This document shows positions 45,842-63,770 of a DNA stretch of 64,000 nucleotides, piece by piece. Positions within the stretch are counted from its first letter, which is position 1, and every line of letters begins with the position of its first letter. The position numbers and the translations under genes were made by a program. This stretch comes from Acidimicrobiales bacterium (lineage in GTDB: Bacteria > Actinomycetota > Acidimicrobiia > Acidimicrobiales > Bog-793): positions 184-64,183 of the forward strand of contig DATLTN010000032.1 in NCBI GenBank assembly GCA_035533595.1. The letters run 5' to 3'. Below the pieces are notes generated by a model. It was given only the letters and a program-made list of their open reading frames with translations, had not been told where the DNA came from and did not search any database.

Positions 45842-46002
45842 CCGCGGGTCACAGACATAAGTGACCCACCCGCGGCGACAGAACTCGTCGCTGAGGTACC
45901 CACATTCTGCCGATGGGCTGTCTCAGTCCATCGGCAGGATCGCGTCAGGGCTTGTGCCGCGATCACAGACGCGGCGAGGTGGAACTGCTCTGCCGGGGGG
46001 CC

Positions 46003-47634
46003 TCAAGCTCCCGGGCGGTGGTCGGCGAGGCTCGTTCGTCGCCGGCGGGCTCGCTCGGTGACCGCCTCGACGTCTCCCTCGGTCTCGATCTCCCGGAAGG
46101 CGCGCAGCTTGCGGATGTTCGCGGCCATCACCAACAGCGCGCAGAACAGCGACTGCGCGACGACGCCGCGGACGCGTCGCCGTGACGGGTCGCCGAGGGC
46201 CTCGTGCGCTCCGTCTTTCAGGAACCCGTTCACACCCTCGATGGTGTTGCGACAGGTCGCGTAGCGGGACCGCCACTCCTCGGTGCCGAAGGCGAGGCGT
46301 TGGCGATGACGGGCCCCGATGTCGGGCGCGATCGTGATCGAGGCCTGCTGACAGCATCGAGGTGCGATCTCCGGCGGAAAGAGCACCTTTGTTGTTCCAT
46401 CGCGGCGAGTGCGCGAGGCGGGCCGTAGCGGACAGGAGAGGTGCGGCGTGGTTCCGACGGCCGGGCAGGAGAAGCGCTCGTAGCCGTCCACGTCGGGACC
46501 GGACTTCACGCGCAGTCGCCACTCGGCCCGGGCCGCGATGCGCGTGGCGTACTCCTCGTCGCCGATGCGCTTGCCTCGGTGGTCCGCGGTGGCCTGGACG
46601 AGGACCGCCGGGATCGCCGGACAGCACCAGGCGCCTTCGACCAGGAGCGCCCCCTGGCTGTTCGCCTGGACGCCGAGCTCGTCTCCCCGGTAGTCGAAGA
46701 CCGGGGTGTAGCCAAGGGCGCGGACCGGCAGGTGGAACACGTCGGCCCGCGCCGAGGAGTAGGCGCGGTCCGCCCCGAGGAAGCCGCTGCGATGACCATG
46801 GGACTGCGCCGCCGCGAGCATCCTTGCGCCGGTCCCTCCGGGATCGACGCCGGGACGCGAGAGACAGAGGCCGACGACGAGGCTCGGATGAGCCACCGGG
46901 CGCCCCGGCGGCGTCGCCATCACCACGATCGTCGCCTCGAGCGCCCAGGCCACCTTTCCGCGGACGCGCCCCTTGTGGTCCTCGACCCCTCGGTGGTCGC
47001 CCTCGCGCACATACCAACCGCCGTCGGGATCAGATGCACAGAGCCCGCTTCTCCGTGACGGCCCCCGGCTGTAGAGGGGGACGGGGGTGGCGTCGAGGCC
47101 GACGGCGCCGTCAAAGAGGGCCCGCTCGTGGCCTTCTTGCAGGGCGAGGGTCGCGCCGAGCAGGCCGGCGACGATCCCCTCGAGCGCCCCCCGGCGTCGC
47201 AGGTGCTCGGCGGGCGCGACGCTCTTTGTCCTCGCCTTCGCCACATCGACTGGGAGCCGGCGGTTCTTCGGAAGTCCTTCGGGGTCAAGGGCCGAGCAGA
47301 TGCGGCCGAAGAGGTAGCGCACGGTGCGGTAGCGGGCGAGGAAGGCCCGCCGGGTCGCGGCCTCGCCGGAGATCCCGAGCCGAGTGCGGACGGCCGGTGG
47401 GAGTCGGCGCCACAACAGCTCGGTCGCCAAGGAGAGGTGCAGCGGCCGCTCCTCGAGTGCGAGGAGCACGAGGGCGACGAGCAGCGCCTCGCTCGAAAGC
47501 GTCCTCGGCCGCCCGGTCGCCGTTTCGAGCTCGGCTTCGATCGCCGAGCAGACCCCGGAGCTCGCGACGATCTCGAGTGCGAAGGTGACGAGCCCGGGGT
47601 CGAGCCGACCGGTGAGGCCGGGGATCTCGCTCAT
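46003..47634 (-). CDS. DDE transposase-like protein (IS4/IS5/IS1182 superfamily-like), 543 aa
   Basis: GRPRTL N-terminus; VGLDATP (D), LGADRAYS (D), RNTIEGVNGFLK (E); C-terminal RRVRG...AANIRKL; Cys-rich insertion. Confidence 0.75.
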   Translation of the reverse strand: MSEIPGLTGRLDPGLVTFALEIVASSGVCSAIEAELETATGRPRTLSSEALLVALVLLALEERPLHLSLATELLWRRLPPAVRTRLGISGEAATRRAFLARYRTVRYLFGRICSALDPEGLPKNRRLPVDVAKARTKSVAPAEHLRRRGALEGIVAGLLGATLALQEGHERALFDGAVGLDATPVPLYSRGPSRRSGLCASDPDGGWYVREGDHRGVEDHKGRVRGKVAWALEATIVVMATPPGRPVAHPSLVVGLCLSRPGVDPGGTGARMLAAAQSHGHRSGFLGADRAYSSARADVFHLPVRALGYTPVFDYRGDELGVQANSQGALLVEGAWCCPAIPAVLVQATADHRGKRIGDEEYATRIAARAEWRLRVKSGPDVDGYERFSCPAVGTTPHLSCPLRPASRTRRDGTTKVLFPPEIAPRCCQQASITIAPDIGARHRQRLAFGTEEWRSRYATCRNTIEGVNGFLKDGAHEALGDPSRRRVRGVVAQSLFCALLVMAANIRKLRAFREIETEGDVEAVTERARRRRTSLADHRPGA

Positions 47635-48401
47635 CGGCTCCCCAGCGCGAGCCGCTCGCGAAGGGCCGCCTTGGACTGCGGTGCAGCAGGGACGTGGCGT
47701 GCGTAGCGCAAGAGGGAGCCCACCTCGTCGATCCCCGCGAGACGGACCAGCTCCGCGAGTGCGGTCCCCGCCGCGAGGTGGTCACAGACAAAGCTCGATC
47801 GGCAGCGACCCGCCGACAGCCTTGGGGCTGTTGGATCAGCGACGATCCGGTCGCACAGATCGGTGACGAAGTTCTTCTGGGTTCGGTCTGCGCCGCCGGG
47901 ACGGAAGAGAAAGCCACCCCCTGCTGCGCTCGCGAGATCGACGGCCCTCTTCTGCCAGGGCGCGCCGACGGGCACCCGGCGACCGGCGACGGTGACGGTG
48001 ACGAACCTTGCGTTGGCGGCGACGTCACCTCCTCTCAGCGCGACGAGCTCGCCGGGGCGCAGCCCCGCCCCGATCCCGAAGCAGATGATCGCCAGTGCGC
48101 TATTGGCCTTCGCGACATGGCGCTGGGACGAGGCGATGCTGAGGAGCTCCGCGCGCTCCGCGCTCGTGTAGGGGGTGACGGCACCTGAGCTGGGAAAGGG
48201 CGTGCCGACGCGACGCCGACGGCTGCGGCCGGGCGAGGACAGGAGCACGCTGCGATAGGTGCCCCGCGTGGACGCCGCCCGGCCGGGGAGGCCGCGCACG
48301 ACGAAGGACTCGACGACGTCGGGGTCGCTGAGCGCCGTCTCGAGCCCGTGCGCGAGGGCGAAGCCGAAGAAGCGCTCGGTCAGTCCGGCCCGCGTCTCCA
48401 T
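47631..48401 (-). CDS. short, divergent tyrosine recombinase-like protein (256 aa)
   Basis: GAGLRPGEL (R), GRCRSSF (second R) and LLRY (Y) retained; both canonical His positions replaced; ATGA overlap with the transposase. Confidence 0.72.
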   Translation of the reverse strand: METRAGLTERFFGFALAHGLETALSDPDVVESFVVRGLPGRAASTRGTYRSVLLSSPGRSRRRRVGTPFPSSGAVTPYTSAERAELLSIASSQRHVAKANSALAIICFGIGAGLRPGELVALRGGDVAANARFVTVTVAGRRVPVGAPWQKRAVDLASAAGGGFLFRPGGADRTQKNFVTDLCDRIVADPTAPRLSAGRCRSSFVCDHLAAGTALAELVRLAGIDEVGSLLRYARHVPAAPQSKAALRERLALGSR

Positions 48402-48434
48402 CTCGCTTGCACGTTAGTAATATCAAGCTAGAAG

Positions 48435-48812
48435 ATGATGGATGCTGGGTGGGTGGAAGAACTTGACCGCCGGGGGGCGATCCTCGCCGAGATCGCCGAG
48501 ATCGGCCCGGTCGTGCCGGGATCGCTCGTCGCGCGTATGACCCGCTGCCAGAACCCCGGTTGTCACTGCAACGCCGATCCGCCCGAACTGCACGGCCCCT
48601 ACTGGACGTGGTCCCATCGACGCGGGGGCCGCCAGGTCACGACGAACGTCTCCGCCGAGGAGGCCGAGCGACTTCGCCCGCTCATCGCCGCGGACCGCCG
48701 CCTGCATGAGCTTCTCCACCAGCTCGAGACCCTCGGCGCAGACGAGACCGTCGCGCGTAACCGCCGAGTCGTCGTGGGGTCACAGCCCGAGGAAGCCGGG
48801 GCGAAGCGTTGA
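48435..48812 (+). CDS. DUF6788-like small Cys/His protein (transposase-associated)
   Basis: GSL...RCQNPGCHC...HGPYWTWS...GRQVT motif. Confidence 0.75.
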   Translation: MMDAGWVEELDRRGAILAEIAEIGPVVPGSLVARMTRCQNPGCHCNADPPELHGPYWTWSHRRGGRQVTTNVSAEEAERLRPLIAADRRLHELLHQLETLGADETVARNRRVVVGSQPEEAGAKR

Positions 48813-49555
48813 GCAGGCCATCAGATTGCCTGGCCAGAGACTTTCGTCGCTGACCCTCTCTGGTGCGCGCTCCGCACGACCCGCGCTGGCGAGGACCGAC
48901 AGCGACGGGCCTCCGGTCCGCTTCGTGGTCGGAGCACGCCGGGCAGGGGAACATCCGCTCGAGGTGGCCGCCGCGGTCCTCGCGGGCGCACTTGTCGAGC
49001 GCCGAGACGCGACGGGCTGCTCGGCCGCGTCGACGCGTTCGCACCGGGCGCGTCGCGGGGCGCTTGGTCGCTGGCACGAAACCGGCGCATCGTGCGGCCT
49101 CGAGAGTCCGCGCCCAAGCAACAGCCGGGCATTGGGACCAGTGCGACCGGAGCCAGAACGTGCGGAGGCGTGGTTCGGAAGCTTCACCTGAGCGATCCGT
49201 TCTTCCGAACGGCCGGCGCTCGCCGTCGAGCTGCGCACTGATCGACCCGCACTCAACGAGCGCGCGGGTCGGCGAGCTGCGCCGACGTCGTGTCCCACAG
49301 GGCCTCGCTGACGTGCCGCGCGAGATGCCCTCGAAAGGGGACGACCTAGATCACCTTCGGACCCCCGTGAATCCCCTCACGATGGCCGATTTCCATGGTG
49401 TGTCGCTGCTTGGATCCTGTCTATGACTTTTGCTTGCCCGATGAACCTGGCGACGCTCTGGCCATCGGGCGGCTCGCCGCCTGTCTCGGGAGATCCGTCA
49501 TCTCCTGATCGTCGGGCGGCGTGCTCCCCGGAACGGCGACGCCCCGCTCAGGTCA

Positions 49556-49652
49556 TCGGGGCGGACGCCGCGAACGACGAGCTGCGCCGCGCAACTCGGG
49601 CCGAGCGGGGACGTTCGAGTTCTGCCGGACCCTGGCGGAGGGTTGTGGGCGC
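49556..49652 (+). repeat. dispersed structured repeat, copy A (3' part only)
   Basis: 28 bp identical to copy B (49608-49635 = 51799-51826); 26 bp identical to copy C (49561-49586 = 52907-52932). Confidence 0.9.
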
Positions 49653-49868
49653 CTGCCGAATATTTGTCACCGTCTCGGTGCTCGGCTGTGCGATCTGGCC
49701 GATGCTCTGGCGCTCCGTGCGACCCTTGCAGATCGTGTGGTGCCCAGTACTCACGTCCGGCTCCTGAGCATGGGAGCCAAGTTCGCTGGGTCGCCCAGGT
49801 GTCTGCACGCTGGCCCGAAGCAGCATTGTTACGTCGGAGCGAGCCAGCGAGTCCTGGCGTACTTGTCG

Positions 49869-51314
49869 CTACCAGATCGGGATCTGCGGGTTCTTCTTCC
49901 CGGTGTCGAACTCACCCTGGTTCCAGTTGGTCATCACCTGTTTCATCGCAGCCGTCGTATTGCCCGCTGAGGCGACGGCGAGTGGTTCCAGTACCGCGCC
50001 GTTGCCGTCGTCGATCTTGAATCCCCAGGAGACCGAGCCGTAGTACTGGCCCTTTTGGACACCGTCGATCGCGTGTGCGGTGGTCTCGAAGGTCATCTCG
50101 GACTTCTGGGGGTTCTTTTTGTCGCCCGCCGCGTTTGTCGCACCGGGCATGTTGGGCTTGTCGTAGAGCTTCGCGCTCCTTTCGGCGGTCTTCTTGAAGA
50201 TGAGGCCCTTCTTGTAGCGGTAGCCAAGCTGATAGTTGCTCGCCGTGCCCTGTTTCTGGGCCTCTGGGCTCATGTCGAGCTTGCTCATAGGCGTTGCGGT
50301 GATGCCTTGCTTGTCGCCGAGGTTGGGAGCCCCGTAAATCGGGTTGTTCATCTTAATATCCCGGTCGATATGGCTCTCCCCTTCGGAGCGTTGCGCTTTG
50401 CGCTTCTGTGCAGGCATCTGGGTTGTACTACCGGATTCGTAATCCTTCCGGGCACTGATGTCGTAGTTGGTGCCCCTCTCGATCTTCTTCGCTTTCTGGA
50501 TCAGTCCGATCTTCGTCGCATTGACTTTGCTGTTCGGGATGAACTCGAGCTCGATCTCTGCGCCGTCTTTGACCGGGCCGTAGTTGTTCGTCTGCCAGTC
50601 GCCACCGCTCGTCTGGACAGCGCGGTGAATGACCGTCCGTCCGATTGTGCTGCTCCCCTGTGCGACGTGGGTGAGCTCGTGCGCGACGAGCTCCTTACCC
50701 CTGGGAGACGACAGGTCAAACTCGCCGCTACCAAAGAAGACGTTATTTCCATATGTAAACGCCCGGGCACCGAGTTTGCCGCTCAGTTCGTGCGAATCGG
50801 TACCGTCGTGCACCCGGACATCAGAGAGATCGGCTCCCGTCGCCCGCTCCACCGCGGGACGGATTCCACCGTCCAGGGAGCGCCCGCCCCTGATTGCGGA
50901 GTGCAAGCGACGCTCAAGCTGGACCGGCAACGGAGCGCCAGACTCGCCTCCGCTGAGCCTCAGGGCGGGGGTCGCCTCGGTCGTTGCGCGCCGGACGGTA
51001 GTTTCCTCCCCCCTGTGCATGACGCCCGGCCGGCCGGAACTGCTTGCACCCCGCGCTCTTGGGCCCTCGAGATCGGCGACGACAGCACGTGCAACATCAT
51101 CTGCGTTGCGCTCATGGTCGCTGCCAGCGTCCCCGACGAGGATGTTGGATGATCCGGGATCGTGTCGATTCTGGAGTAGCGCGGTAACGGCGCGGTTGCC
51201 GACAGTTCGTTGGAGCATGAGCACGGACCGCTCGCCTGAAGCGATCTGGTCGAGCGGGCCCGCGGCCGGGAAACGTCGCGCGCTCGTCGGAGCATTGTCA
51301 CGTCGATTCGCCAT
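49869..51314 (-). CDS. DUF4157 (eCIS core domain) protein with variable C-terminal effector-like domain
   Basis: LQRTVGNRAV, DLSDVRVH, ARAFTYGNNVFF, AHELTHVAQ (HExxH); Lys/Asn-rich, lower-GC C-terminal domain. Confidence 0.85.
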   Translation of the reverse strand: MANRRDNAPTSARRFPAAGPLDQIASGERSVLMLQRTVGNRAVTALLQNRHDPGSSNILVGDAGSDHERNADDVARAVVADLEGPRARGASSSGRPGVMHRGEETTVRRATTEATPALRLSGGESGAPLPVQLERRLHSAIRGGRSLDGGIRPAVERATGADLSDVRVHDGTDSHELSGKLGARAFTYGNNVFFGSGEFDLSSPRGKELVAHELTHVAQGSSTIGRTVIHRAVQTSGGDWQTNNYGPVKDGAEIELEFIPNSKVNATKIGLIQKAKKIERGTNYDISARKDYESGSTTQMPAQKRKAQRSEGESHIDRDIKMNNPIYGAPNLGDKQGITATPMSKLDMSPEAQKQGTASNYQLGYRYKKGLIFKKTAERSAKLYDKPNMPGATNAAGDKKNPQKSEMTFETTAHAIDGVQKGQYYGSVSWGFKIDDGNGAVLEPLAVASAGNTTAAMKQVMTNWNQGEFDTGKKNPQIPIW

Positions 51315-51647
51315 CCACCGCTGCTGCCGCAAGACGCCCAACGTCTCCCACCTCGGCGCATGAGTCTAAAAAATGTTCAGCGCGGCACAGGGCACCGCAC
51401 TGACGCGGATGGTATCGCGGAAGGTCGGTCAGCGGTAAGGAGAGTTGTTCCGTCCGCCGTGGAGTTGGAAGTCAGACGTTCATCGCCTCCGAAATCGGTC
51501 TCGACCTCCCCACCAGGGCATACGCGGTGGTAGCGGGCTGACCACGTGTTGGTCCGTCCCTGATGCGCCTTGAGGGTGTGCGGGAACAGAACTTCGTACC
51601 GAACGACGCTCGACGCCGCGGCAATAGCCGACCCGATCCACGGTTCG

Positions 51648-51842
51648 CGCCGCATCTGTCGTCCCGCTGCCCCTGGTCCGAGAGAGCCACGAAGAAGAGC
51701 ACCGGGGCTCCGCCCCCCGCCCCCCGGCCCTTTCAGGGAGAGCCCTCGGGGCGGACGCCACGAACGAGGAGCTGCGAGGCGCAGCTCGGACCGAGCCAGG
51801 GACGTTCGAGTTCTGCCGGACCCTGGTGGGGGTTGCGGGCGC
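51648..51842 (+). repeat. dispersed structured repeat, copy B (longest)
   Basis: 49 bp identical to copy C (51672-51720 = 52829-52877) and shares its 3' half with copy A. Confidence 0.9.
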
Positions 51843-52008
51843 GAGGCCGATTCGGCGCTCGCGCTGGACCGGCCTCCGGGCGCTGATCTGTGCGCGCCCT
51901 ACCCGGTGGTAGCTGACACAGGTCTCAACCCAGCTCCCGGCACGCGTTAAGGGCTAACTGACTGCCGATCCGGTTGGGACGACGATGCGGCATCTCCGAA
52001 GCAATGCC

Positions 52009-52629
52009 CTACGTGGCAGGGTGTCCGTGTACTCGCTTGTACTGCTTTGTCGCGGCGGCGATGAGCTGTGCCTGAGTAGGCGGCTTCTTGGGATTGCCGG
52101 ACCACCCAAACCCAAGCAGGTACAGGAATGCCCCGTCTGCAAAGACGACGTTGTAGCCAGTACCTGAACTTCCGCTCAGTCGGTAGCCACGAGCGTTGGG
52201 TATTCCGCTGACTCGGAACGACTGGTAGGTGTCTGGCGACTTGGTCGTCGACTTCTCCTTCTGGACGTCGGCGGCGAGCTCACTTAGGGCATCCTTCGGC
52301 GCGCCCAACTGCATGACCCACGAAAGTCCGCTCCAGGGCTCTTGTATGGGCGTGCCGAGCTGGCGGATGACCACGGCAACGAAGCCCTCCTTGCGAAGTC
52401 GGGCGATATCTGTCGCAGATTGAGCCGCGGTATCGCCCGAGCCGCTCTCCCACTGCTGAGAAGTCTTGTCCAGTGTCGTCGACTGTCCAGACACGGACAC
52501 GAAACCGGGAAACTCACTCGATTCGATCAGGCGAGCGCTGAGCGATAACGGTGTCGTGGTAGCCGCGGCAGTACCCGCCGCCGACAGCGCGAGCACGACC
52601 GCCACTCCGATGATCCTGATGGGACGCAC
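52009..52629 (-). CDS. secreted hypothetical protein
   Basis: Signal peptide (RIIGVAVVLALSAAGTAAA); open reading frame between repeats B and C. Confidence 0.7.
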   Translation of the reverse strand: MRPIRIIGVAVVLALSAAGTAAATTTPLSLSARLIESSEFPGFVSVSGQSTTLDKTSQQWESGSGDTAAQSATDIARLRKEGFVAVVIRQLGTPIQEPWSGLSWVMQLGAPKDALSELAADVQKEKSTTKSPDTYQSFRVSGIPNARGYRLSGSSGTGYNVVFADGAFLYLLGFGWSGNPKKPPTQAQLIAAATKQYKRVHGHPAT

Positions 52630-52804
52630 AAGCGGACCCTTGTCTTGATCCAACCTCGTGTCAAGCAACGCTCTTGGACGGACGACCGTCCGTGAAGAGG
52701 CGTTGTGGGAGACCGAAGGGTGCCCCGCTCGTGCCGGTCGCGAACACAGATTGCACGCCCGAATGACAGTCGAGTGTCAAGAGACGGCAGCGCAGATCAG
52801 ATCT

Positions 52805-52933
52805 CGCCGCATGTGTCGTCCCGCTACGCCTGGTCCGAGAGAGCCACGAAGAAGAGCACCGGGGCTCCGCCCCCCGCACCCCCGCCCGTTCGAGGAGAGA
52901 TCCTCGGCGGACGCCGCGAACGACGAGCTGCGA
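52805..52933 (+). repeat. dispersed structured repeat, copy C
   Basis: Aligns with copy B over about 130 bp; diverges after GAGCTGCGA. Confidence 0.9.
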
Positions 52934-53158
52934 TCCGGGCTCGGTTCGAGAACGGTGACATTGCGATGGTTGCGGCCCTGCTGATAGTCGCGGGCGCCTG
53001 TCAATCCGCGCTTCGCAGGAACACGCCTACCTAAGCATTCCAACCAACCGTGCCTATCCCCAGTGATGTGGCATTCGCCTTCGCTGGTGCCCCGCCGAAG
53101 TGCGATCCGGCCATGACCCGATGCCGCGGCTACGTCGAGAAGAGCTGAATGTTGTCGC

Positions 53159-53195
53159 GAGCGGACCCGGGAGCAAGTGGCCCCCGGGTCCGCTC
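53159..53195 (-). terminator. 13-bp GC-rich hairpin downstream of the peroxiredoxin-like gene
   Basis: GAGCGGACCCGGG (53159-53171) / CCCGGGTCCGCTC (53183-53195). Confidence 0.6.
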
Positions 53196-53206
53196 CTTAT
53201 CCTCCG

Positions 53207-53680
53207 TCAGCGAGAACGTTGACGGTTGACGTAGGTGATTACGTCGTCGGGGACGAGGCGTCCGATCGTCTTCGACGAGTACACCGCGACCTCGATTCGT
53301 CCGTCAGGTGTCAGGAGGAAGTTCGACGCCTCGAGCACCCCGCGGTCACGGTTTATGTAACCCCTGAGCAGCATGGCCATCTCCTCGAGATCGACGCCGT
53401 AACCGATCGGGAAGGTGAGGCCGTGCCGGTCCACCGTCTCCTTCGCGTGCGCCCCGTCGTCGACCGAGAAGGCCACGACCGCAATCCCCGCCTCGGTAAG
53501 ACGCGGCATCGCCTCCTGGAAGCTCGCCAGGTGCGCATTGCAGAAGCCGCACCACGACCCGCGGTACGCGAGCACCGCGGCATACGAACCAGCGAGATCG
53601 TCTGGCAATACGAGCCTTCCGCCGCCGACGACCGGAAGCTCGAATTTCGGGAAAGCGTCGCCGTTGTTGAGACCTTCCAT
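53207..53680 (-). CDS. AhpC/TSA peroxiredoxin-like (redoxin) protein
   Basis: GDAFPKFEL, YRGSWCGFC (CxxC), VAFSVD, NFLLTPDGRI. Confidence 0.85.
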   Translation of the reverse strand: MEGLNNGDAFPKFELPVVGGGRLVLPDDLAGSYAAVLAYRGSWCGFCNAHLASFQEAMPRLTEAGIAVVAFSVDDGAHAKETVDRHGLTFPIGYGVDLEEMAMLLRGYINRDRGVLEASNFLLTPDGRIEVAVYSSKTIGRLVPDDVITYVNRQRSR

Positions 53681-53872
53681 CTTGTCCACTCCCTCTGTGG
53701 CGAACGCGCGACCAAGTATCTCGTGAAACGCGCTCTCGTCGATTGACGACCGTCGGGGTACCTGCACCTTCGGTAGTCGTAACTCTTCGACCAGACAACT
53801 CCGTCGTGCCACGAGTCTGGCTGCCGACGAGTCGCCTGGCACCGATGGGGCACGCGCAACGTCGTTACGTGG

Positions 53873-54550
53873 CTACGGCGCGACCCTCGCCATCGAGACG
53901 CGAACGGCCTCAAGTGCGCCGTCAGGCAGACTTTTCGCGCCACCGAGGGCCATCGCCCCCAATTCCGCCTCGGCTGCTTCCTCGAGGACAGTGAGCAGTG
54001 CCGCGGTCGCTTCCACGCTTGCTCCGAACACGAGCACGCCGTGATTGCCGAGGAGGACGGCGTTTGTGCCAGGGCGTTCCCGGACAAGTTCGACGATCGC
54101 CTCGACGGAACGCTCCGATCCGCGCGGCGCCCACGCAGCGACTGGCACCTCCTCTGCTTGCCCGAAGCGGAGCAGCGCCTCGTAGCGGGCGGGAACAGGA
54201 AGGTTCGCCATCGCGAAGGCAAGGAGGTTCGGCGAGTGGGTGTGGACGACGGCACCGACCTCAGGGCGTGCGAGGTAGACCTTGGTGTGCATGGTGATGA
54301 TCTCGGCATTGGTCGGAGCGAGATCGCCTTCGACGAGGCCTCCATCGAGGCGGACCACCGCGAAGTCTTCGACCGTGAGCTCCCGCACCTGACCGGTTGA
54401 CGTGAGGACTATCTCCTCAGAATTGACCCGCGCCGAGAAGTTGGCGTGGCCTGAGTGCGACATGATGCCAGCCCGAAAGAATCCTGACGATGCGTTGACG
54501 ACAGCAATCCGCTCGTCGAGGTGAGACGGGCCATGTGAGGTCGTGGTCAT
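53873..54550 (-). CDS. class II aldolase/adducin family protein
   Basis: GHANFSAR, MHTKVYLARPEVGAVVHTHSP, NHGV; RBS before ATG 54550. Confidence 0.88.
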   Translation of the reverse strand: MTTTSHGPSHLDERIAVVNASSGFFRAGIMSHSGHANFSARVNSEEIVLTSTGQVRELTVEDFAVVRLDGGLVEGDLAPTNAEIITMHTKVYLARPEVGAVVHTHSPNLLAFAMANLPVPARYEALLRFGQAEEVPVAAWAPRGSERSVEAIVELVRERPGTNAVLLGNHGVLVFGASVEATAALLTVLEEAAEAELGAMALGGAKSLPDGALEAVRVSMARVAP

Positions 54551-54705
54551 CGCCTTCTCCTTCCGGCGCTCACTCGGAGTGGCGAGAGGCCGAGCGTAGT
54601 TCGGAGGTCGTGGTGAGCCTGTCGGACTCATGCTGATCGCCCGCCTCGACCCTGGTCACCTCCCCGGAATCGAATAGCGTCGCGCCAACCGGGAGGAGGG
54701 CACCC

Positions 54706-55653
54706 ATGACTGAGGCAGCCGTGATGACCATCGTCGACTTCCACTGTCACTACGCGGGCCCCGAGTGGCCAGCCTTGCCACCTGTCAACTCCCTCCCGGA
54801 GCATGTTGCGCGCTGGATGGGACTCGCGCAGCGCATTGCTGACCTTGATGGCCTGCTCCGCGAGCAAGCAGAAGTCGGGATGGACCTCCGAGTGCTGAGT
54901 GCACCCCCAGCGCTTGTCACACCGGATGGCGAGCGTCTTGGGATTCCTGTCATGCGGGCGATGAACGACCATCTCGCCGAGGTCCTCGACCATCGCGACC
55001 ACCTTGCAGGGCTCGCCACGATCGATGCGTTTCAGGGCGATGATGCAGCCCTTGAGGTTGAGCGGGCGAGCCGCGAGCTCGGCCTTTCGGGAATCGTGGT
55101 CGACTGTGCGCACGGTGACCGCTTTCTCGATGCCCCCGAAGCACGTGCGACGCTGCAGGCCGCTGCCGATCTTGGGGTGCCGGTCTTCGCTCACCCCGTC
55201 AGCCTGGCTGAGCTCAGCGCGGAACTTGCACCGCTGGGGAACTGGGGACGGATGCTCGCCCGCGGCACTTCGAGCGCGGCAAGCTTGCTTGCTCTTGTGA
55301 ACTCCGGCGTGCTGGACGAGGTGCATGGGCTGCGGATCGTGTTCGCCTGGCTCGGTGGCGGCGGTCTTGTCGTAGCGGGAACCCTGCAAGGTGCCGAGCG
55401 CCTGAGGCGCACGACGCCCGAGGCCGAGCGTTGGCATATTTACTTCGACACGATGGGCTTCGAGCCGAGCGCGGTGCGCTACGCCGTCGATCTCCTCGGA
55501 AGCGATCACGTTCTCGTCGGGAGCGACTGGCCGATCGGTCTGACCGCAGCGACGCGCGCGCGGGTGGCTGCAACGCTCGCTGCCGCCGGTCTCGACCCAG
55601 CCGACCAGGAGCGAGTCAGCTCAGCGAACGCGCTTGAATTGTTGGGACGCTGA
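54706..55653 (+). CDS. amidohydrolase_2 family (ACMSD/LigW-like decarboxylase or hydrolase)
   Basis: DFHCH, FAHP, YFDT and GSDWP motifs. Confidence 0.85.
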   Translation: MTEAAVMTIVDFHCHYAGPEWPALPPVNSLPEHVARWMGLAQRIADLDGLLREQAEVGMDLRVLSAPPALVTPDGERLGIPVMRAMNDHLAEVLDHRDHLAGLATIDAFQGDDAALEVERASRELGLSGIVVDCAHGDRFLDAPEARATLQAAADLGVPVFAHPVSLAELSAELAPLGNWGRMLARGTSSAASLLALVNSGVLDEVHGLRIVFAWLGGGGLVVAGTLQGAERLRRTTPEAERWHIYFDTMGFEPSAVRYAVDLLGSDHVLVGSDWPIGLTAATRARVAATLAAAGLDPADQERVSSANALELLGR

Positions 55654-55813
55654 CGCGATTGGGCCAGCAATGGCGCAATTGCCTACCTACGGCCGGCATC
55701 AGATTTCGTCGGCGATGGCCGTGCGTCCGCGATGATGAGTCGAGGTGTATCTGACACCGACGCCCACGTATGGTCGCCAGTTGTCCTGATGCCAGCAAGA
55801 GATGGGGTTCCTC

Positions 55814-56686
55814 ATGAGCAGCAACGTGGACGGACATTTGAAGGTCGCCCCGAATGGTCGGGCCTTTGACCTCCCGGTGCTGGTTGGGATCGAGGAGGGG
55901 ATCTTCGAGAGTCGCGGCCTGAGTGTTGAGCTCTCTGGCCGCTACGAGGATCGCCCGCTCGCGGAGCGCGACGTCTTTGCCCGCCTGAAGGAATCACAAT
56001 TCGAGGCAGGAATCGCTGACGTCTACAACGTGTGCGAATGGGCGAGCATCGACCGACTCGAGCGTGGCAGCCGACCGGGGCAGGTCGCGATCCTGCGGGC
56101 GGCCGTCGCCTCGCAGGCGCTGCTCACCTTTGACCCGACGCTGAACGAGCCGCACGATCTCGGTGACATTCCCGTCGGGGTGAACGAGTTCACCGGATCC
56201 CACTACACGACGTTGCAGCTCCTCGAGGGCGCGCTTCCGCGCGAGCGCGTCCGCATCGAACACGTCGGCGGCCCGGACTACCGGATGGAGCAGCTCCGCT
56301 CGGGGGGCTCCAGAGTCGTTGCGCTCATGGAGCCGTTCATCAGTTTGGCCCTCAAGCTCGGGGCGCACATCATCGCCTCGACCTTCTACCGGGGCGCTGA
56401 GGTCGTCGGTGCCAACCTCTCCTCCGACGCGCGAAGCGCCTACTTAGATTCGATCAACGAGGCGGTCGATCGGATCAATGCAGCACCGACTGACTACGCG
56501 CACCTGTTGGTGGAACCCACCAACGGCGAGCTTCGCCCCGAGGAGCTGTCCGGCCACTTCCTCCACTACATCCACGTCACGCCGTATCCGCGCGAGCGGC
56601 TCACCGAGACCTACAGCTGGATGCGCTCTTGGGGCCTCGCCGGGGGCGAAGTACTCCCCGAACAGCTCGTCGCGCTCGAGGGATGA
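55814..56686 (+). CDS. NMT1/THI5/SsuA-like substrate-binding protein
   Basis: LPVLVGIEEGIFESRGLSVEL N-terminus; GSHYTT; EPF; overall family-like layout. Confidence 0.65.
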   Translation: MSSNVDGHLKVAPNGRAFDLPVLVGIEEGIFESRGLSVELSGRYEDRPLAERDVFARLKESQFEAGIADVYNVCEWASIDRLERGSRPGQVAILRAAVASQALLTFDPTLNEPHDLGDIPVGVNEFTGSHYTTLQLLEGALPRERVRIEHVGGPDYRMEQLRSGGSRVVALMEPFISLALKLGAHIIASTFYRGAEVVGANLSSDARSAYLDSINEAVDRINAAPTDYAHLLVEPTNGELRPEELSGHFLHYIHVTPYPRERLTETYSWMRSWGLAGGEVLPEQLVALEG

Positions 56687-56730
56687 GACCGAGCTGAGGA
56701 CACAGAGCAGTTGATCGACTCTCGAGGTCG

Positions 56731-56875
56731 CCTCGACACAGAGGAACTGCAACGACCGCACGAGGTCGGCCGCGGCGAGCAGGCAGAAGCGTCAGTTCTT
56801 GTTCGCCTCGCGATCGAAGGGAAAGCGCAAGAGCCCGCAGTCCTTCTGGCTCGAGATGTGCTCTTCGAGGAGGCG
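56731..56875 (-). pseudogene. IS1380-family transposase C-terminal relic
   Basis: Minus-strand translation RLLEEHISSQKDCGLLRFPFDREANKN*...AADLVRSLQFLCVE resembles, from memory, the IS1380-type E..I...KD.GL..FP....AN..W...AADL..W.QLL segment; W codon now TGA. Confidence 0.5.
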
Positions 56876-56897
56876 TGGGCACCGAGCGGCTGGTGTC

Positions 56898-58481
56898 TCA
56901 ATCCTGGCCGGCCGCCCGGCGGAGAACGGCTGCGGGGTCGGACGGAGATTCGTCGCCACACCACGCCACGTACTGGTCGGGGCGAATGAGAACGAGGCGC
57001 GCTCCGAGCTCGGCGCGGGAGCCCTCATAGGTATCGGTCACCACGGAGAGCGGCACGCCGAGCGCCTTCGCGTCCTCGGAGAACGCGTCGTGCGCGCCGC
57101 CGGCAAGATCGAGGAGCGTAAAGCCGGTGCTGAGCTCTTCGAATACGTTCCGGCCCGACGAGAGCACCACGGGCGCGAGATGGTGGCCCGCCCTCGCCTC
57201 GAAGGAGTGTCGACCCTCGGCGCCCACCTTGGCACCCGGGGGGCCGAAGACGACCGGCGAGCCCTCATAATTCGGCTCGTAGGTCGGTGCCGCCGTGTCG
57301 CCCTGCGTGCGCTTGTCCCACTCGGCCTCGAACTCGGCGCGATTCCGCTCGGGTGAATAGCGCTCGAGGAAGTCCCGCTCGGTCGCGATCCAGCCCGCGA
57401 TCACCTCCTCGCCGGTCTCCTTGAAGACCGGCTGCCGCTCGAGACTGTAGGACTCGAGAAGTTGATCCCCGCCCCAGCCTTCGAGGGCCGCAGCGAGCTT
57501 CCATCCAAGGTTCGCGACGTCCTCGAGGCCGGTGTTGAGACCGAAACCCCCGTAGGGCGGGTGGCTGTGCGCCGCGTCGCCGGCGATGAAGGTCCGCCCC
57601 GCGCGGTAGGTGGTTGCGGCCTCGATCCGCAGCTCCCAGAAGCCGACATGGGAAAACTCGATCGGGAACTCGAACCCGGCCGCCTCATAAATGAGACGCT
57701 TCATCTCCTCGCGGTCGTCCGTCTTGGTCTCCCATGGCACTGGCCCGTGGTAGAACCAGGTCTGGCCGACCTCGACCCGCCCGAAGAACTGCCAAATGCC
57801 GCGGTGCTCAGGCTTCATGACCCGGTAGGTCGTGCGCTCTGGATACCGGGTGAGCGCGTCGTGGAGCTCGGTCGAGCGGAAGACGGCGAGGAGCATCTTC
57901 TGGTCGTAGTTCGGACCCTCGCGCTCGATGCCGACCGACTCGCGCACGAGAGAGCGGGCTCCGTCACAACCGACGAGGTACTCGGCAGTGATCTCGTCCT
58001 CTTCGTAGGGCCACTCCTCGCCAGCGATCCGCACGCGCACCTCGGCGCCGTCGTGGCTGATCTCCTTGGCCATCCAACCGAAACGCGCCTCGACGGACGG
58101 CAGCTCGGCCATTCGCTCGCGCAGCACCTCTTCGGTCAGGAACTGCGGCAGACGCTCGTTGCGTTGGAAGTAGTAGTCCCGGATCCGCTCGAGGCCTGCG
58201 GTCACGTGCCAGTAGTCCGAGCGGAAGTCACGGTAGGCGGTGAGCCCGCCGATCGGGTAGCCGGGAGGGAGCAGTCGCCGCCCGCGCAGCTCCTCGACGC
58301 AGTGCCAGAAGTAGAAGTGCTCGAGCGTTCGCTGAGTGAGATTCTGGCCCTTCGGGATCCGACCGACACCGAGGTGGCGCTCGACGACGATGCAGCTCAC
58401 CCCTCGCTGGCCGAGCTCGACCGCGAGTCCTACCCCGACCGGACCGCCACCGACGATCACAACCTGTACGTGCCCTGGCAC
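56898..58481 (-). CDS. FAD-dependent monooxygenase (PheA/TfdB/aklavinone hydroxylase-like)
   Basis: GGGPVG, GCDGARS, GDAAHSHPPYGGFGLNTG; thioredoxin-like C-terminus (LIRPDQYVAW). Confidence 0.9.
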   Translation of the reverse strand: MPGHVQVVIVGGGPVGVGLAVELGQRGVSCIVVERHLGVGRIPKGQNLTQRTLEHFYFWHCVEELRGRRLLPPGYPIGGLTAYRDFRSDYWHVTAGLERIRDYYFQRNERLPQFLTEEVLRERMAELPSVEARFGWMAKEISHDGAEVRVRIAGEEWPYEEDEITAEYLVGCDGARSLVRESVGIEREGPNYDQKMLLAVFRSTELHDALTRYPERTTYRVMKPEHRGIWQFFGRVEVGQTWFYHGPVPWETKTDDREEMKRLIYEAAGFEFPIEFSHVGFWELRIEAATTYRAGRTFIAGDAAHSHPPYGGFGLNTGLEDVANLGWKLAAALEGWGGDQLLESYSLERQPVFKETGEEVIAGWIATERDFLERYSPERNRAEFEAEWDKRTQGDTAAPTYEPNYEGSPVVFGPPGAKVGAEGRHSFEARAGHHLAPVVLSSGRNVFEELSTGFTLLDLAGGAHDAFSEDAKALGVPLSVVTDTYEGSRAELGARLVLIRPDQYVAWCGDESPSDPAAVLRRAAGQD

Positions 58482-58619
58482 TCTCACTCCTCACTTGCGA
58501 ACCGGAGCAACGTGGACGAGCCGGTGCAGTGCCGCGTTCGGTCAACACCGTCCAGCCGAGGCCGACCCCGAACGCCGCTCGTTGCTGATGTTCTCGCTGC
58601 TGTTGCTCGAACGACGCGC

Positions 58620-58658
58620 GCCGCCGGTTCTGGCCCAGATCGTGCCAGAACCGGCGGC
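58620..58658. terminator. 15-bp perfect inverted repeat between the SBP and monooxygenase genes (terminator or mRNA stabiliser)
   Basis: GCCGCCGGTTCTGGC (58620-58634) / GCCAGAACCGGCGGC (58644-58658). Confidence 0.55.
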
Positions 58659-58713
58659 ACCTCACAGGCAAAGTCGGCGCGAGGCCGGCTTCACCCCATT
58701 GGCGAGTCGGCGC

Positions 58714-60024
58714 TTACTTGAAGTACTTGTTGATCGATGCCGCAGGCTGCGAGAACACGACCTTCAGCTGGCCGCTCGGCTGCAGCTTCAACAGCTGGAA
58801 GCCCGACGGGGGCCAGTTCCACTGGTTGAAGATGAGCTGGCCGGAGGCCCCCTCGTACTGGATCTTCTTGTTCTGCTTCAAGAGGGCGTAGCCCTGGGCG
58901 TAGGTGCTGACGACCGTCGCCCCGGGGTTGTTCGTGACCTTCTTGATGTACTTCAGGTACCTGCTCGGGCTCGTCGAGTGCGCCTCGTCCATCGCAAGGG
59001 CCATGATGTTCAGCCCGTCATACAGCGAGTACTGCGGCGGCACCGGGGCCCCCGCCTTCGGGTAGTACTTGCTGTACTCCTTGTTGAAGTACGGCTGGCC
59101 GGGCGCGCTCGCGGGTGCGATGTTCTCGATGTAAAGGAACTTCGCCAAGACGGCCATCCCGCCCAACGCCTTTGCCACCGTCGAGAAGTACTGCGGACTG
59201 TCGTTCTCACCGCCGCCGATGACCGTCATCCCGAGAAGGCCGAGCTGCTTCATGTCCGAGAACATCGTCGCCGCCGTCTGTGGGTCCGTCTCGGTAATGA
59301 GGATCTGGGCGTGTGAGGAGGCGAGCCTTTCCACCTCGGTTCGGTACGACGACTGATCGACCGGGAGGGTCTCGTTGAGCACGATGTCCCCGTTGTGGGC
59401 CTTCACCTCGGCCACGATCGACGGCACGTTCGACTGGGCGGTGCCGCTCGAGTCGAACATGAGCGCGATCTTCTTGTTTCCAAAGTGCAAGACGGACTGC
59501 GCCATCGCGACTCCCTGGACCGAGTCCGGGGACGAGAGCCGGTAGAGGAACTTGTAGTTGCTGTGGTCGAGCTGTGGCGGGCCAGCAAGGCTCATCGTGA
59601 CGAGTTGGTGCTGGTTGACCACCGGAGCGAGTGCGGTCGCATTGCTCGAATCGAGCCCCTCCATGCCGGAAAGGTTCGAATGCTGGACGAACATCCGCTG
59701 CAGGGCGGGGACCGCGTCCACCGGGTCCGAGCCGGAGTCCGTCGAGACCACCTGGGCCGGGCGCCCGAGGATCCCACCCGCCTTATTGATGATCGAAATA
59801 CCCATCTTCACCGGCGGCAGGTTGAACGTCGTGCCGATGAACGCATTTGCGCCCGAGAACGGGCTGAACACGTCAAAGAGGACCGGTGTGCCACTCGGGG
59901 CTTTCGATTGTGGAACCGCAGCGTTGCTCGCTCCGCATGCGGCGAGCGCCAGGACTGGCGCCAGCACTGCGGCAGCTACCTTCCCATTTCTCGACAACAC
60001 CCTCCCAACAGTTGGATGTCTCAT
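58714..60024 (-). CDS. branched-chain amino acid type (LivK-like) ABC substrate-binding lipoprotein
   Basis: Lipobox LAAC; INKAGGILGR; ATG at 60024 after GGAGAAGAA. Confidence 0.85.
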   Translation of the reverse strand: MRHPTVGRVLSRNGKVAAAVLAPVLALAACGASNAAVPQSKAPSGTPVLFDVFSPFSGANAFIGTTFNLPPVKMGISIINKAGGILGRPAQVVSTDSGSDPVDAVPALQRMFVQHSNLSGMEGLDSSNATALAPVVNQHQLVTMSLAGPPQLDHSNYKFLYRLSSPDSVQGVAMAQSVLHFGNKKIALMFDSSGTAQSNVPSIVAEVKAHNGDIVLNETLPVDQSSYRTEVERLASSHAQILITETDPQTAATMFSDMKQLGLLGMTVIGGGENDSPQYFSTVAKALGGMAVLAKFLYIENIAPASAPGQPYFNKEYSKYYPKAGAPVPPQYSLYDGLNIMALAMDEAHSTSPSRYLKYIKKVTNNPGATVVSTYAQGYALLKQNKKIQYEGASGQLIFNQWNWPPSGFQLLKLQPSGQLKVVFSQPAASINKYFK

Positions 60025-60088
60025 TTCTTCCCCCCTCTGTGTTCGCTGGGCAACCACCCAAGCACCTATGTCGCCAATATTCTGACTT

Positions 60089-60862
60089 CTACGCACGTCC
60101 GTCCTGCGATCGGAGGACAACCTGCTGGCCCATGAAGATCCGGCCGAGGTCGTGCAGGTTCTCGAGCATTTCGACCCCGCTCGCCTCGACCGCGTTCTTG
60201 CCGTCGACGAGGACATGGACCCAGTCGGCGATCTCCATGATCGCCTTCGCCTTCTGCTCGACGACGAGGAGCGCAAGCTGCTGGGAGCGGAGCAGCTCGA
60301 GGTGCTCCCAGACCGTCTTCATCGCCCTCGGCGACAGCCCTGCGCTCGGCTCGTCCATCAAGATCGCACTCGGCGAGCTCATCAGCGCCCGGGCGATCGC
60401 GAGCACCCGGCGCTCTCCTCCGCTCAGTGTTCGGGCGCGCTGGCGCATCCTGCTCGCGAGGAGTGGAAAGAGCTCGAGCAGCTCCTCGCGCTTGTGCTCT
60501 CGGGCGGCCTTGTTGGTAATCCCGCCGATCATCAGGTTTTCACTGATCGTGAGGTGATCGAAAACATCGCCGACCTGGGGCACGTAGCCAATCCCTGCCT
60601 TCACCATCTCGTCGGGTCGCAGCCCGGTGAGATCGCGTCCATCGAGCGACACTGAACCCGATTGTGGCTTCAGGAGGCCCATCATGGCCTTCAGCAGCGT
60701 GGACTTCCCCGCGCCGTTCGGACCGATGAGGGCGACCAGGCGACCCGACTCGGTCCCGATCGACGCCTCCTTCACAATCGGGACAGGCCCATAGCCCGCG
60801 ATCAGCTGATCCACGCGCAAACGGTGAGTGCCGGTGACAAAGGACGTCGTCGCCTCAGTCAA
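60089..60862 (-). CDS. LivF-like ABC ATP-binding protein
   Basis: GPNGAGKST, LSGGERR, MDEPSAGL. Confidence 0.92.
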   Translation of the reverse strand: MTEATTSFVTGTHRLRVDQLIAGYGPVPIVKEASIGTESGRLVALIGPNGAGKSTLLKAMMGLLKPQSGSVSLDGRDLTGLRPDEMVKAGIGYVPQVGDVFDHLTISENLMIGGITNKAAREHKREELLELFPLLASRMRQRARTLSGGERRVLAIARALMSSPSAILMDEPSAGLSPRAMKTVWEHLELLRSQQLALLVVEQKAKAIMEIADWVHVLVDGKNAVEASGVEMLENLHDLGRIFMGQQVVLRSQDGRA

Positions 60863-61610
60863 GGTAGGCCTCGAGCACTCGTTCGTCCTGGCGGAGCTCG
60901 GCCATCGTGCCCCGTGAGAGCACGCTCCCTTGAGCCATCGCGTAGACCGTCTCGCAGAGCCGGTCCACCACCTCGAGGTCGTGTTCGATCACAAGGAACG
61001 TGAGACCCGAGCGTCCGAGTTCGAGGATGTGATCGACGATGCGATCGATGAGCACCCCGGCCACGCCGGCCATCGGTTCGTCGAGCACGAGCATCTCCGG
61101 CTCGGCCATCAGTGCCCGCGCGATCTCGAGCAGGCGCTTTTGGCCACCCGAGAGGTTGCCCGCGTACTCATTCTCCAGCGCGCCAAGCCCGAAGGACTGC
61201 AGGTACTCGCGGGCTTTCGCGAGGAGCCGGTACTCCTCGTCGATCCAGCTCCGCCGGTTGAAGATCGCTCGACCAAAGCTGGTCCCAATCTGCTTCGGCG
61301 CCACAAGCATGTTCTCGAGCAGTGTCATCCAGGGAAACTCGCTCGAAAGCTGGAACGTCCGGATAAGCCCGGTGCGCGCAACGCGATACGGCGGTAGACC
61401 AGTGATGTCCTGGCCGTTGAAGCGCACCGTCCCATCCTCGGGACGGATGTGACCCGAGATGACGTTGACGAGCGTCGACTTCCCGGCGCCGTTCGGCCCA
61501 ATGAGCCCAGTCACAGTGCCCCGCTCGATCTCCAAGGAGGCATCGACGACGGCGCGTACACCGCCGAACGAGCGGCTCACGTGTTCGCAACTCAAGATGG
61601 CATCAGTCAC
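60855..61610 (-). CDS. LivG-like ABC ATP-binding protein
   Basis: SFGGV, GPNGAGKST, LSGGQKR, LDEPMAG, IEHD. Confidence 0.92.
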   Translation of the reverse strand: MTDAILSCEHVSRSFGGVRAVVDASLEIERGTVTGLIGPNGAGKSTLVNVISGHIRPEDGTVRFNGQDITGLPPYRVARTGLIRTFQLSSEFPWMTLLENMLVAPKQIGTSFGRAIFNRRSWIDEEYRLLAKAREYLQSFGLGALENEYAGNLSGGQKRLLEIARALMAEPEMLVLDEPMAGVAGVLIDRIVDHILELGRSGLTFLVIEHDLEVVDRLCETVYAMAQGSVLSRGTMAELRQDERVLEAYLD

Positions 61611-61655
61611 GGACTTCCGCCTTTACCCGGGTGTGAACCGTCACGGCGTCATTCA

Positions 61656-62627
61656 TCATCGAGAACGCGCTAGTCCGAGAGGCGCGGGCGCACGTCGCCA
61701 CTTGGACTTCTGCTCCGGGATGAGCCCTCGCGGCCGGAACCACAAGAACGCTACCAGCGCGACCCCGTAGATGATCCACTGGATCGCGTAGCTGAGTTCC
61801 GGATTGTTCGAGAATCCAGGGAGAAACGACGTGCCCTGGCCGACGAGGATGAACGTCGCGAGAGTGCCGACTGCGGCACCCCAGTTGTTCGCTCGACCAC
61901 CGATGATCATCGCCGCGGTCGCAGGAAAGATCTCTGTGAAGGACCAAGGTTGCATGCCCCAGACCGTCACGTACTCCGCCAGCAGCCCGCCGGCCAGCGC
62001 CGCCATGGCCGAGCCACACACCGTCGCGATGAGGCGCACTTTGAACGGATTGATGCCGAGCGTCGCGGCCGCGGCCTCGTTCTCCCGTATCGACTTCGCC
62101 ATCCGGCCGAGCGGCGACTTGAAAAATCGCTCGCTGAACCAGAAGACAAGGATGCAGAAAAATGCGGCGATCCCGAGGAACAACCACTGGTACGCGTTAT
62201 AGGTCGTCACCGATGAGGAGAACGGCTGTGGGATCGAGTCGAGTCCGTTCTCGCCACCGAGAAAGTTCGGAAAGCCGTCGACGACCGTCCACACGATGCT
62301 CAAGATGGCAAGCGTCACGATGGCGAGATAGTGACCTCGCATCCGGTAGAGCGAGATCAGGCCCACGATGAGGCCGAGCACCGCGCCGACCACCATCGCG
62401 AGGAGCAGGGGGAGCGGGAAGGGCAACGATGCTCCGAAGAAATAGTGCTGTAACGAGAGCGCGTTCGGCGCGCCCAAGGAAAGGATCGCTGTCACGTAGG
62501 CACCGAGGCCGAGAAAAAGGACAAAGCCTAGGTTTGCCATGCCCATGAGCCCGAGCTGCAGGTTCGCCGAAAGCACCAAGATGAGCTGGGTAAAGAAGTA
62601 CACCCCGAGGGTGACCGCGTAGGCCAT
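61656..62627 (-). CDS. LivM-like ABC permease
   Basis: GHYLAIVTLA, GGENGL, SPLGRMAKSIRENE, MIIGG. Confidence 0.9.
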   Translation of the reverse strand: MAYAVTLGVYFFTQLILVLSANLQLGLMGMANLGFVLFLGLGAYVTAILSLGAPNALSLQHYFFGASLPFPLPLLLAMVVGAVLGLIVGLISLYRMRGHYLAIVTLAILSIVWTVVDGFPNFLGGENGLDSIPQPFSSSVTTYNAYQWLFLGIAAFFCILVFWFSERFFKSPLGRMAKSIRENEAAAATLGINPFKVRLIATVCGSAMAALAGGLLAEYVTVWGMQPWSFTEIFPATAAMIIGGRANNWGAAVGTLATFILVGQGTSFLPGFSNNPELSYAIQWIIYGVALVAFLWFRPRGLIPEQKSKWRRAPAPLGLARSR

Positions 62628-63520: not shown

Positions 63521-63770
63521 CGCTGCACCAGATGATGGTCCGCCTGCCAGACGGCCATCGAATCGTGAACTGAGTCCGCCCGATCGCCGCGCGGAAAATC
63601 TCCGCCAGAACGCCTCAACGCTGTCCCCCCAAGGGTCAGTTGTGTCCGTTGTTTTCGTAATGCTTCAACATTCTGAGCCAACGCGGCGGCTCTCCAGGCT
63701 GCTGGCACTTGATCATACGAAATGACAGCGCGCTCGTGGCGATCGTTCTACCACAGAGCCGCTCGGAAGG

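Follow-up and report, generated by a model that had tools for sequence, protein, structure and literature searches.

How did three same-orientation copies of a non-coding repeat come to stand around two single, unrelated genes in the genome of an Acidimicrobiales bacterium? The locus lies in a stretch of 64,000 nucleotides (contig DATLTN010000032.1 of assembly GCA_035533595.1; "the window" below means this whole stretch), and an initial annotation made from its letters alone had offered three answers: the recombination sites of an integron-like cassette array, scars of repeated integration by related elements, or a miniature inverted-repeat transposable element (MITE). The second fits best, and it alone predicts that half of the repeat should be missing where it is. 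Our preferred reading, a tentative one whose chance of being right we would put a little short of even, is that the three copies are the joints of two successive Campbell-type insertions, each of a circle into the chromosome, at a single site.

Anatomy of the repeat and proposed order of insertion

The three copies, A, B and C, all lie on the plus strand and are real, having been seen by direct reading, by a repeat finder and by pairwise local alignment. In blastn searches against the whole assembly (2.79 Mb in 73 contigs, 96% complete), B and C matched each other with an E value of 2e-43 (152 nt, 86% identity) and A matched the right half of B with an E value of 4e-28 (98 nt, 89%). The repeat unit is ~200 nt long (198 nt in B), non-coding and composite, consisting of a left arm, L, of ~100 nt, a core, O, of 27 nt (GGCGGACGCCGCGAACGACGAGCTGCG) and a right arm, R2, of ~70 nt; the extent of each part in each copy is given in Table 1. 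The core is identical in A and C at 27 of 27 positions and differs from them in B at two (51760 and 51768). The L arms of B and C are 88% identical, and the R2 arms of A and B 89%, whereas the R2 arm of C is only 73-74% identical to either, with many indels. C had been located correctly in the initial annotation, which ended it at 52933; its right half in fact runs on in decayed form to 52997, and is homologous to those of A and B (z of 5.0 and 3.3 against dinucleotide shuffles). To the left of A, the flanking segment X has no similarity to L beyond that of shuffles.

Perfect blocks shared between pairs of copies had been reported at 49, 28 and 26 bp. The first two stand (B 51672-51720 = C 52829-52877, within L; A 49608-49635 = B 51799-51826), and the third is actually 27 nt (A 49560-49586 = C 52906-52932). 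Between copies with so many differences, runs of 49 and 27 nt would be improbable if the differences were placed at random (P ~0.002 each). As first described, the copies bracket single, unrelated genes on the minus strand, both of them real, a DUF4157/eCIS_core gene (gene1) between A and B and a secreted-protein gene (gene2) between B and C, so that each module holds one gene, in the same orientation. The cargo is foreign in composition: the GC fraction is 0.69-0.75 in the repeats and 0.61-0.67 in the modules and their spacers, against 0.722 for the genome. When compared, the spacers on the two sides of both cargo genes had nothing in common between them.

The repeat is private to this locus. 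B matched only A and C above noise in the 2.79-Mb genome, and no copy was found by blastn in 461 genomes of the family and order (searched as sets of 61 relatives and 401 genomes of the order); phage and plasmid collections likewise held none. Species-representative genome contigs and viral contigs had no other copy of exact 24-mers taken from the L and R2 blocks, and a search of metagenome contigs for the core pattern returned only the same organism with the same arrangement, together with six chance matches that sit in histidine-kinase genes encoding 'DAANEELRS'. Such confinement is more in keeping with recombination that took place locally than with a dispersed element. No repeats flank the homologues of either cargo gene in other contigs, and neither synteny nor an empty site was found in relatives, where X and the AhpC region have no DNA-level counterpart.

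How two insertions could have built this arrangement can be followed from left to right. The full unit, L-O-R2, would behave as an attP-type site whose two arms lie around the 27-nt common core. The chromosome would first have carried X-O-old R2, ~0.7 kb downstream of the tRNA-Gly gene, with X as the outer arm of the presumed resident site. A circle of 2190 bp (O-R2, spacer, DUF4157 gene, spacer and L) would have recombined at O, leaving X|O-R2 (copy A), then gene1, then L-O-old R2, and another circle, related to the first and 1157 bp long (O-R2, the gene for the secreted protein and L), would have recombined into the right-hand joint, after which copy B would consist of the L of element 1 and the R2 of element 2, and copy C of the L of element 2 and the old R2. 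Five predictions of such a history agree with the copies as we find them: the leftmost lacks L, the middle one is complete, the oldest R2 is rightmost, the two young R2 arms are alike, and so are the L arms. The setting is, moreover, a recombination hot spot, with a tRNA-Gly gene 0.7 kb away, the edge of a low-GC stretch, and a polymorphic integrative element adjoining.

That circles took part, which insertion came first and what kind of enzyme acted are all inferred. Since neither module encodes a recombinase, the exchange would need either the site-specific recombinase of another element, acting in trans, or RecA acting on the shared homology (27-200 nt). A site-specific enzyme is slightly favoured because two short cores are invariant while their surroundings drift; the core of B changes to the right of position 10 of O, which would place the second crossover at or to the left of the start of O.

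Several points weigh against two insertions at O. The array and its immediate surroundings contain no recombinase, and the genome offered no candidate for a partner: the nearest tyrosine-recombinase (Phage_integrase) domain in the window is at ~1.5-2.7 kb, ~47 kb from the array, and none of 11 tyrosine-recombinase-domain matches elsewhere in the genome could be tied to the site. Neither a related site nor an autonomous, integrase-bearing relative occurs in any collection searched, which leaves the supposed element family with two members. Typical attP arms are not as rich in GC as the arms here, and the R2 of C is homologous to the element-borne R2, so that the 'resident' site would itself be an older scar. 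Gene conversion among the three copies could have shaped the mosaic of identities, and the modules are patchworks (a 65-nt motif in one, a terminator upstream of gene1 in the other), which also fits illegitimate recombination. Finally, the assemblies and runs contained no empty site, circle junction, deletion or alternative cargo, as far as k=31 unitigs, which cannot span the 49-nt block, can reveal these; the shuffling of cargo between strains that the initial annotation had envisaged was likewise not found, and the data hold no sign of present-day activity of the array.

Table 1. Features of the array and its surroundings (window positions; strand left empty where none applies)
Feature	Position	Strand	Remarks
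Mobile element E	45848-48863		context, not part of the array; IS1182-like DDE protein, 256-aa open reading frame, DUF6788 gene
X	48857-49555		700 nt, 70% GC, no detectable gene; between tRNA-Gly (or E) and copy A
Copy A	49556-49652	+	half site: core O 49560-49586, R2 49587-49652; no L arm; left flank is X
Module 1	49653-51644	-	62% GC; gene1 with spacers of 216 nt downstream and ~300 nt upstream
gene1, DUF4157/eCIS_core + HExxH protein	49869-51314	-	ATG start; upstream TTG at 51341
Orphan 92-codon open reading frame	51377-51655	-	ATG in last bases of the L arm of B; stop in 12-bp terminator stem, then T6
Copy B	51645-51842	+	complete: L 51645-51745, core O 51750-51776, R2 51777-51842
Module 2	51843-52801	-	61-67% GC; gene2 and spacers; 52737-52801 is a separate 65-nt motif
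gene2, secreted protein	52009-52629	-	GTG start; upstream TTG at 52668
Copy C	52802-52997	+	L 52802-52901, core O 52906-52932, decayed R2 52933-52997
Spacer, C to AhpC/TSA	52998-53206		holds AhpC/TSA terminator hairpin 53159-53195
AhpC/TSA gene	53207-53680	-	right of copy C

The two cargo modules

The product of gene1 (481 aa) combines an eCIS_core/DUF4157 domain (9e-26) and an HExxH motif with a C-terminal domain of unknown function. Its full-length relatives are at most 50% identical and lie in varied, unrelated neighbourhoods with no flanking repeats; there are no extracellular contractile injection system (eCIS) genes within the window. The C-terminal half (~residues 240-481) is also present in proteins without a DUF4157 domain (58-63% identity over half the query), and corresponds to the lowest-GC stretch of the region (0.585-0.59). 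These features suggest a protein that is modular and polymorphic-toxin-like in build. RNA contigs from a soil metatranscriptome fall on 50882-51387 and thus on the 5' half of gene1 only. Just upstream of the gene1 start there is a strong terminator hairpin on the gene strand (51403-51377, minus), within which the orphan open reading frame of 92 codons ends. This frame has no homologue among 5.8 billion proteins and no clear codon-position GC signal (a weak one at most). Copy C has a matching ATG-CGG-CG(C/A) start (Met-Arg-Arg), but the frame there is only 11 codons long.

The protein encoded by gene2 (206 aa) has a predicted signal peptide and no Pfam match. Foldseek places its structural model (pLDDT, the predicted local distance difference test, of 82.5) near mycobacterial PknH, in its extracellular domain, and TiME (E 2.5e-4, TM ~0.5), and the protein is predicted to share the fold of TiME and of the extracellular sensor domain of PknH. 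Its family comprises ~25 clusters, all metagenomic and in very different neighbourhoods. The segment 51890-52736 recurs in two contigs of one metagenome at 87-90% identity over 720-850 nt, the first matching window positions 52725-52004 at 90% and the second 52736-51890 at 87%; both contigs have 61-62% GC, unrelated neighbours and no repeat, and nothing else in the one that we compared with this genome matched it. The gene therefore travels without the repeats, and module 2, judged by these matches, is shown to be foreign and independently present elsewhere.

Between the gene2 segment and copy C lies a further stretch of 65 nt (52737-52801), which is ~88-95% identical in several contigs from four soil runs, with flanks that differ on both sides among those contigs. 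On the gene strand it includes TTGACA, and it also contains an inverted repeat, ATGACA-N6-TGTCAA. The stretch is absent from the rest of the genome and from 400 genomes of the order, and gave no fold signal and no Rfam match; it could be a mobile promoter-like motif or binding site.

Competing explanations and known systems

The mosaic build of the modules brings with it the most serious alternative, namely that the array is a patchwork made by illegitimate recombination at an island edge, in which foreign pieces were captured at breaks (by end joining or template switching) and a host segment was copied twice, with no site function. The modules have arbitrary ends, and the homology of gene2 ends differently in its two donors; a 65-nt motif with a distribution of its own abuts copy C, and a terminator and an orphan open reading frame precede gene1; there are only three copies, all private, with no recombinase and no activity seen. 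What such a history leaves unexplained is that both inserts lie at the same point of the unit, that A lacks exactly L and C carries exactly the old R2, and that two short cores are invariant at the P values given above; templated insertions of 100-200 nt, twice and in one register, would have to be a coincidence. We consider a patchwork unlikely, though with a substantial residual chance.

Somewhat less credible, and to be given only a small chance, is that the repeat is a duplicated cis-acting element (a terminator or insulator, a promoter-leader, or a small RNA gene) that was copied locally as being useful beside new genes. On the gene strand, a pyrimidine-rich tract comes after a GC hairpin of L (GGGGC-GGA-GCCCC), and R has a perfect 8-bp hairpin; R lies 160-220 nt downstream of each of three genes (AhpC, gene2 and gene1), L stands before both cargo genes with a Shine-Dalgarno-like GGGA and an ATG at its end, and the invariant cores suggest constraint. 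The tests for structure and expression point the other way. The copies had been described as structured, and A and B do contain the GAGCTGCG/CGCAGCTC hairpin, the CTCGG/CCGAG palindrome and, as the outer pair, CGAACG..CGTTCG, which C has largely lost, but on neither strand did the folding of whole units or of single modules improve on that of dinucleotide shuffles (z of -0.7 to +1.9). An Rfam search of the repeats gave no family at E <= 1, scans do not flag the repeats, no RNA over the repeats was seen in soil metatranscriptome contigs, and no RNA runs are listed for copy B. Nor does a cis-acting function provide a mechanism for copying beside unrelated foreign genes; it is compatible with two insertions at O rather than opposed to them.

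We also considered whether the repeats derive from genes. A coding remnant was rejected, as six-frame translations contain no conserved frame and indels between the copies break every frame; open frames of X and of the spacers had no Pfam match. An origin from a tRNA or tmRNA gene was rejected as well: the best repeat match to these genes in the genome is 15/16 to a tRNA-Arg T-arm, shuffled repeats do equally well, and the matches are within the null range. ARAGORN calls no tRNA at the end of copy C, which had been thought to be of tRNA type, and the tRNA-Gly 3' end has just one match in the array, at chance level and inside gene1.

A non-autonomous transposable element of the MITE or repetitive extragenic palindromic (REP) kind, which would have made three local hops or arrived with the island from a donor rich in it, is very improbable. 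The unit is short, GC-rich, non-coding and intergenic, and its ends show a weak GCGCC(C)GCA similarity, but such ends are not significant in DNA of 72% GC. No convincing terminal inverted repeats or target duplications were detected at the copies, the flanks of B and C have no duplication in common, and one copy is exactly half a unit. Scattered copies had been named as the mark of a REP or MITE; there are exactly three, all within 3.5 kb, and the absence of any other from the genome, the 461 related genomes and the collections excludes both, so that the explanation is close to refuted.

The idea of an integron-like cassette array was one of those in the initial annotation, and it fails on several counts. 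In integrons, and in clusters of attC sites lacking integron-integrases (CALIN), single-gene units in one orientation stand between mutually similar repeats and the newest unit lies next to the resident site (PMC4889954), and the array here is alike in these respects; its genes are promoter-poor, and its repeats resemble one another as in sedentary chromosomal integrons. Canonical attC sites are imperfect palindromes of 57-141 nt with an R'' box (RYYYAAC) and an R' box (GTTRRRY) 40-130 nt apart, whereas A, B and C contain neither RYYYAAC nor GTTRRRY on either strand, the 198-nt unit exceeds the usual attC length, and the fold signal is lacking. No match to the integron integrase (TIGR02249) exceeded the cut-off in the genome. 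The spacers within the units, 48-300 nt on both sides of the genes, are long and non-coding, include the terminator and the 65-nt motif, and are not precise cassette ends. Moreover, the half-site pattern points to a central crossover, in the middle of the unit, rather than a terminal one. The fold relatives of gene2 hint at an actinobacterium, and Actinobacteria were without complete integrons in the IntegronFinder survey (PMC4889954). A true integron-type array recombined by IntI is, in sum, extremely unlikely.

An assembly artefact, in which strain variants are threaded serially through shared k-mers, has next to no chance, even though the genome is metagenome-assembled and the gene2 unitig loops through the 49-nt block, for independent contigs with their own flanks agree, the copies differ by 11-27%, and the unitig depths fit. 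Six contigs (from several samples and assemblers) and three runs all give one and the same array: k141 MEGAHIT contigs from three samples, two Joint Genome Institute contigs and the metagenome-assembled genome all carry B and C with flanks of their own. In the graph, the 1168-nt gene2 unitig begins and ends in the 49-nt block and so forms a loop. The block is a separate unitig, with about twice the flanking depth in run X1 and a higher one in runs X2 and X3, and the depths of the flanks and of the gene2 loop are equal, fitting one copy per module.

Among known systems, the closest parallels to two insertions at O come from the arrays of integrative and conjugative elements (ICE) and cis-mobilizable elements (CIME) of Streptococcus thermophilus and from mobilizable islands that use the integrase of another element, where integrase-less derivatives accrete in tandem. 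There, as here, direct att repeats part modules stacked at one site, the inner joints are hybrid, and some modules lack a recombinase and are served in trans; the common core and hybrid joints by which such accretion is recognised are present in our array as A = X|O-R2, B = L-O-R2 and C = L-O-old R2. The differences are that the modules here are of 1.2 and 2.2 kb with a single gene, that the repeat is ~200 nt long as opposed to a core of 20-50 nt, and that it does not lie in a tRNA gene and has no known autonomous relative.

The pdif modules of Acinetobacter plasmids, like other Xer-dependent elements, are recombinase-less gene modules with short conserved sites, acted on by the host recombinase. 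Whereas pdif sites alternate in orientation, the repeats here are direct, and the region contains no dif-like 28-mer above background. A candidate chromosomal dif site, CGCCGATAATGTTCGTTATGTAAGT, was the single match to a loose dif pattern (contig C52, minus strand, ~82.8 kb from the end). Xer/dif-like sites were rejected, the best ungapped match of the region to this candidate being 15/28, equal to background (mean 15.5). In IS26-type translocatable units, direct copies bracket unrelated genes and arrays grow by insertion beside an existing copy; unlike those copies, what is repeated here is a non-coding unit of 200 nt without a transposase.

The setting also recalls the tycheposon islands of Prochlorococcus, whose repeats are partial tRNA genes and whose elements carry integrases (bioRxiv 10.1101/2020.12.28.424599). 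In both cases the island is tRNA-proximal, older elements are displaced inward as new ones arrive, remnants lie scattered together with repeats of att motifs, and populations vary in the presence of elements, as seen here for the neighbouring element E. The array differs from tycheposons (bioRxiv 10.1101/2020.12.28.424599) in that it contains no partial tRNA-Gly copy and its repeats match no tRNA above chance.

The tRNA-Gly neighbourhood and the meaning of the array

In the window, X follows the right end of element E, which encodes an IS1182-like DDE protein (46003-47634), a protein of 256 aa (47631-48401) and a DUF6788 protein (48435-48812); in an independent contig of 99.9% identity, X directly follows the 3' end of tRNA-Gly(UCC). 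Junctions with and without E are both present in a single soil run, at depths of 8.7 and 6.8, and the array is unchanged in either case. Because E is absent from part of the population while the array stays the same, E is a separate, polymorphic insertion, and the array lies 0.7 kb from the tRNA gene. The right end of E was found joined to its own left end in one run (..CTCTCTGG|GTCACAGACATAAGTG), which indicates a circle or a tandem form, and E looks active from these junctions. Its empty site reads tRNA-Gly..GCCCGCTCTCTGG|TGCGCG in other contigs, a third right flank exists, and the shared core is about CTCTCTGG. An E-related left end (81% over 135 nt) also follows tRNA-Gly on contig C6 of the genome, from which it follows that C32, the contig that holds the window, may be chimeric across two copies.

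A recombinase near the array had been suggested to serve the repeats. It belongs to a separate, tRNA-targeting element with ends that are unrelated to the repeat: the repeat has no similarity to the ends or att sites of E, and Pfam detected no tyrosine-recombinase domain in its 256-aa open reading frame.

From ~49.2 kb to its end, the window has 64.0% GC as compared with 72.2% for the genome, a value below the 1st percentile of 5-kb windows, and the array thus borders on an island of low GC that is 15 kb long or longer. The right part (49200-64000) also holds genes for AhpC, a class II aldolase, an amidohydrolase, an FAD monooxygenase and a branched-chain amino-acid ABC transporter. With low GC from 0.7 kb off tRNA-Gly onward, this part is likely to be a genomic island of large size.

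The mechanism that we propose, in which modules accrete in tandem at a site of att type, is already known; what is unusual is the scale, with recombinase-less modules of a single gene and sites of ~200 nt that lie off the tRNA gene. With three copies, a single population and nothing to indicate activity, the finding is a modest one, and if the copies are scars of two old events, as the missing variation suggests, they would be a tidy example of island growth beside a tRNA gene, of limited general interest. If, on the other hand, the joints are true recombination sites, a high-GC soil bacterium could capture and stack single genes with modules much smaller than the integrative elements known so far, and would need no integron to do so; this would bear on the spread of orphan secreted proteins and toxin-like DUF4157 genes in soil communities. 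L-O-R2 might even mark a class of minimal integrative cassettes not described before, each of 1-2 kb with one gene and no recombinase, which would attach by a phage-type site of ~200 nt (two arms and a 27-nt core) and stack at a chromosomal site via a recombinase in trans. This is a bolder claim that we hold to be improbable, but it would, if true, describe a cassette system that parallels integrons in function, and this in a soil bacterium of high GC from a lineage that may be without them.

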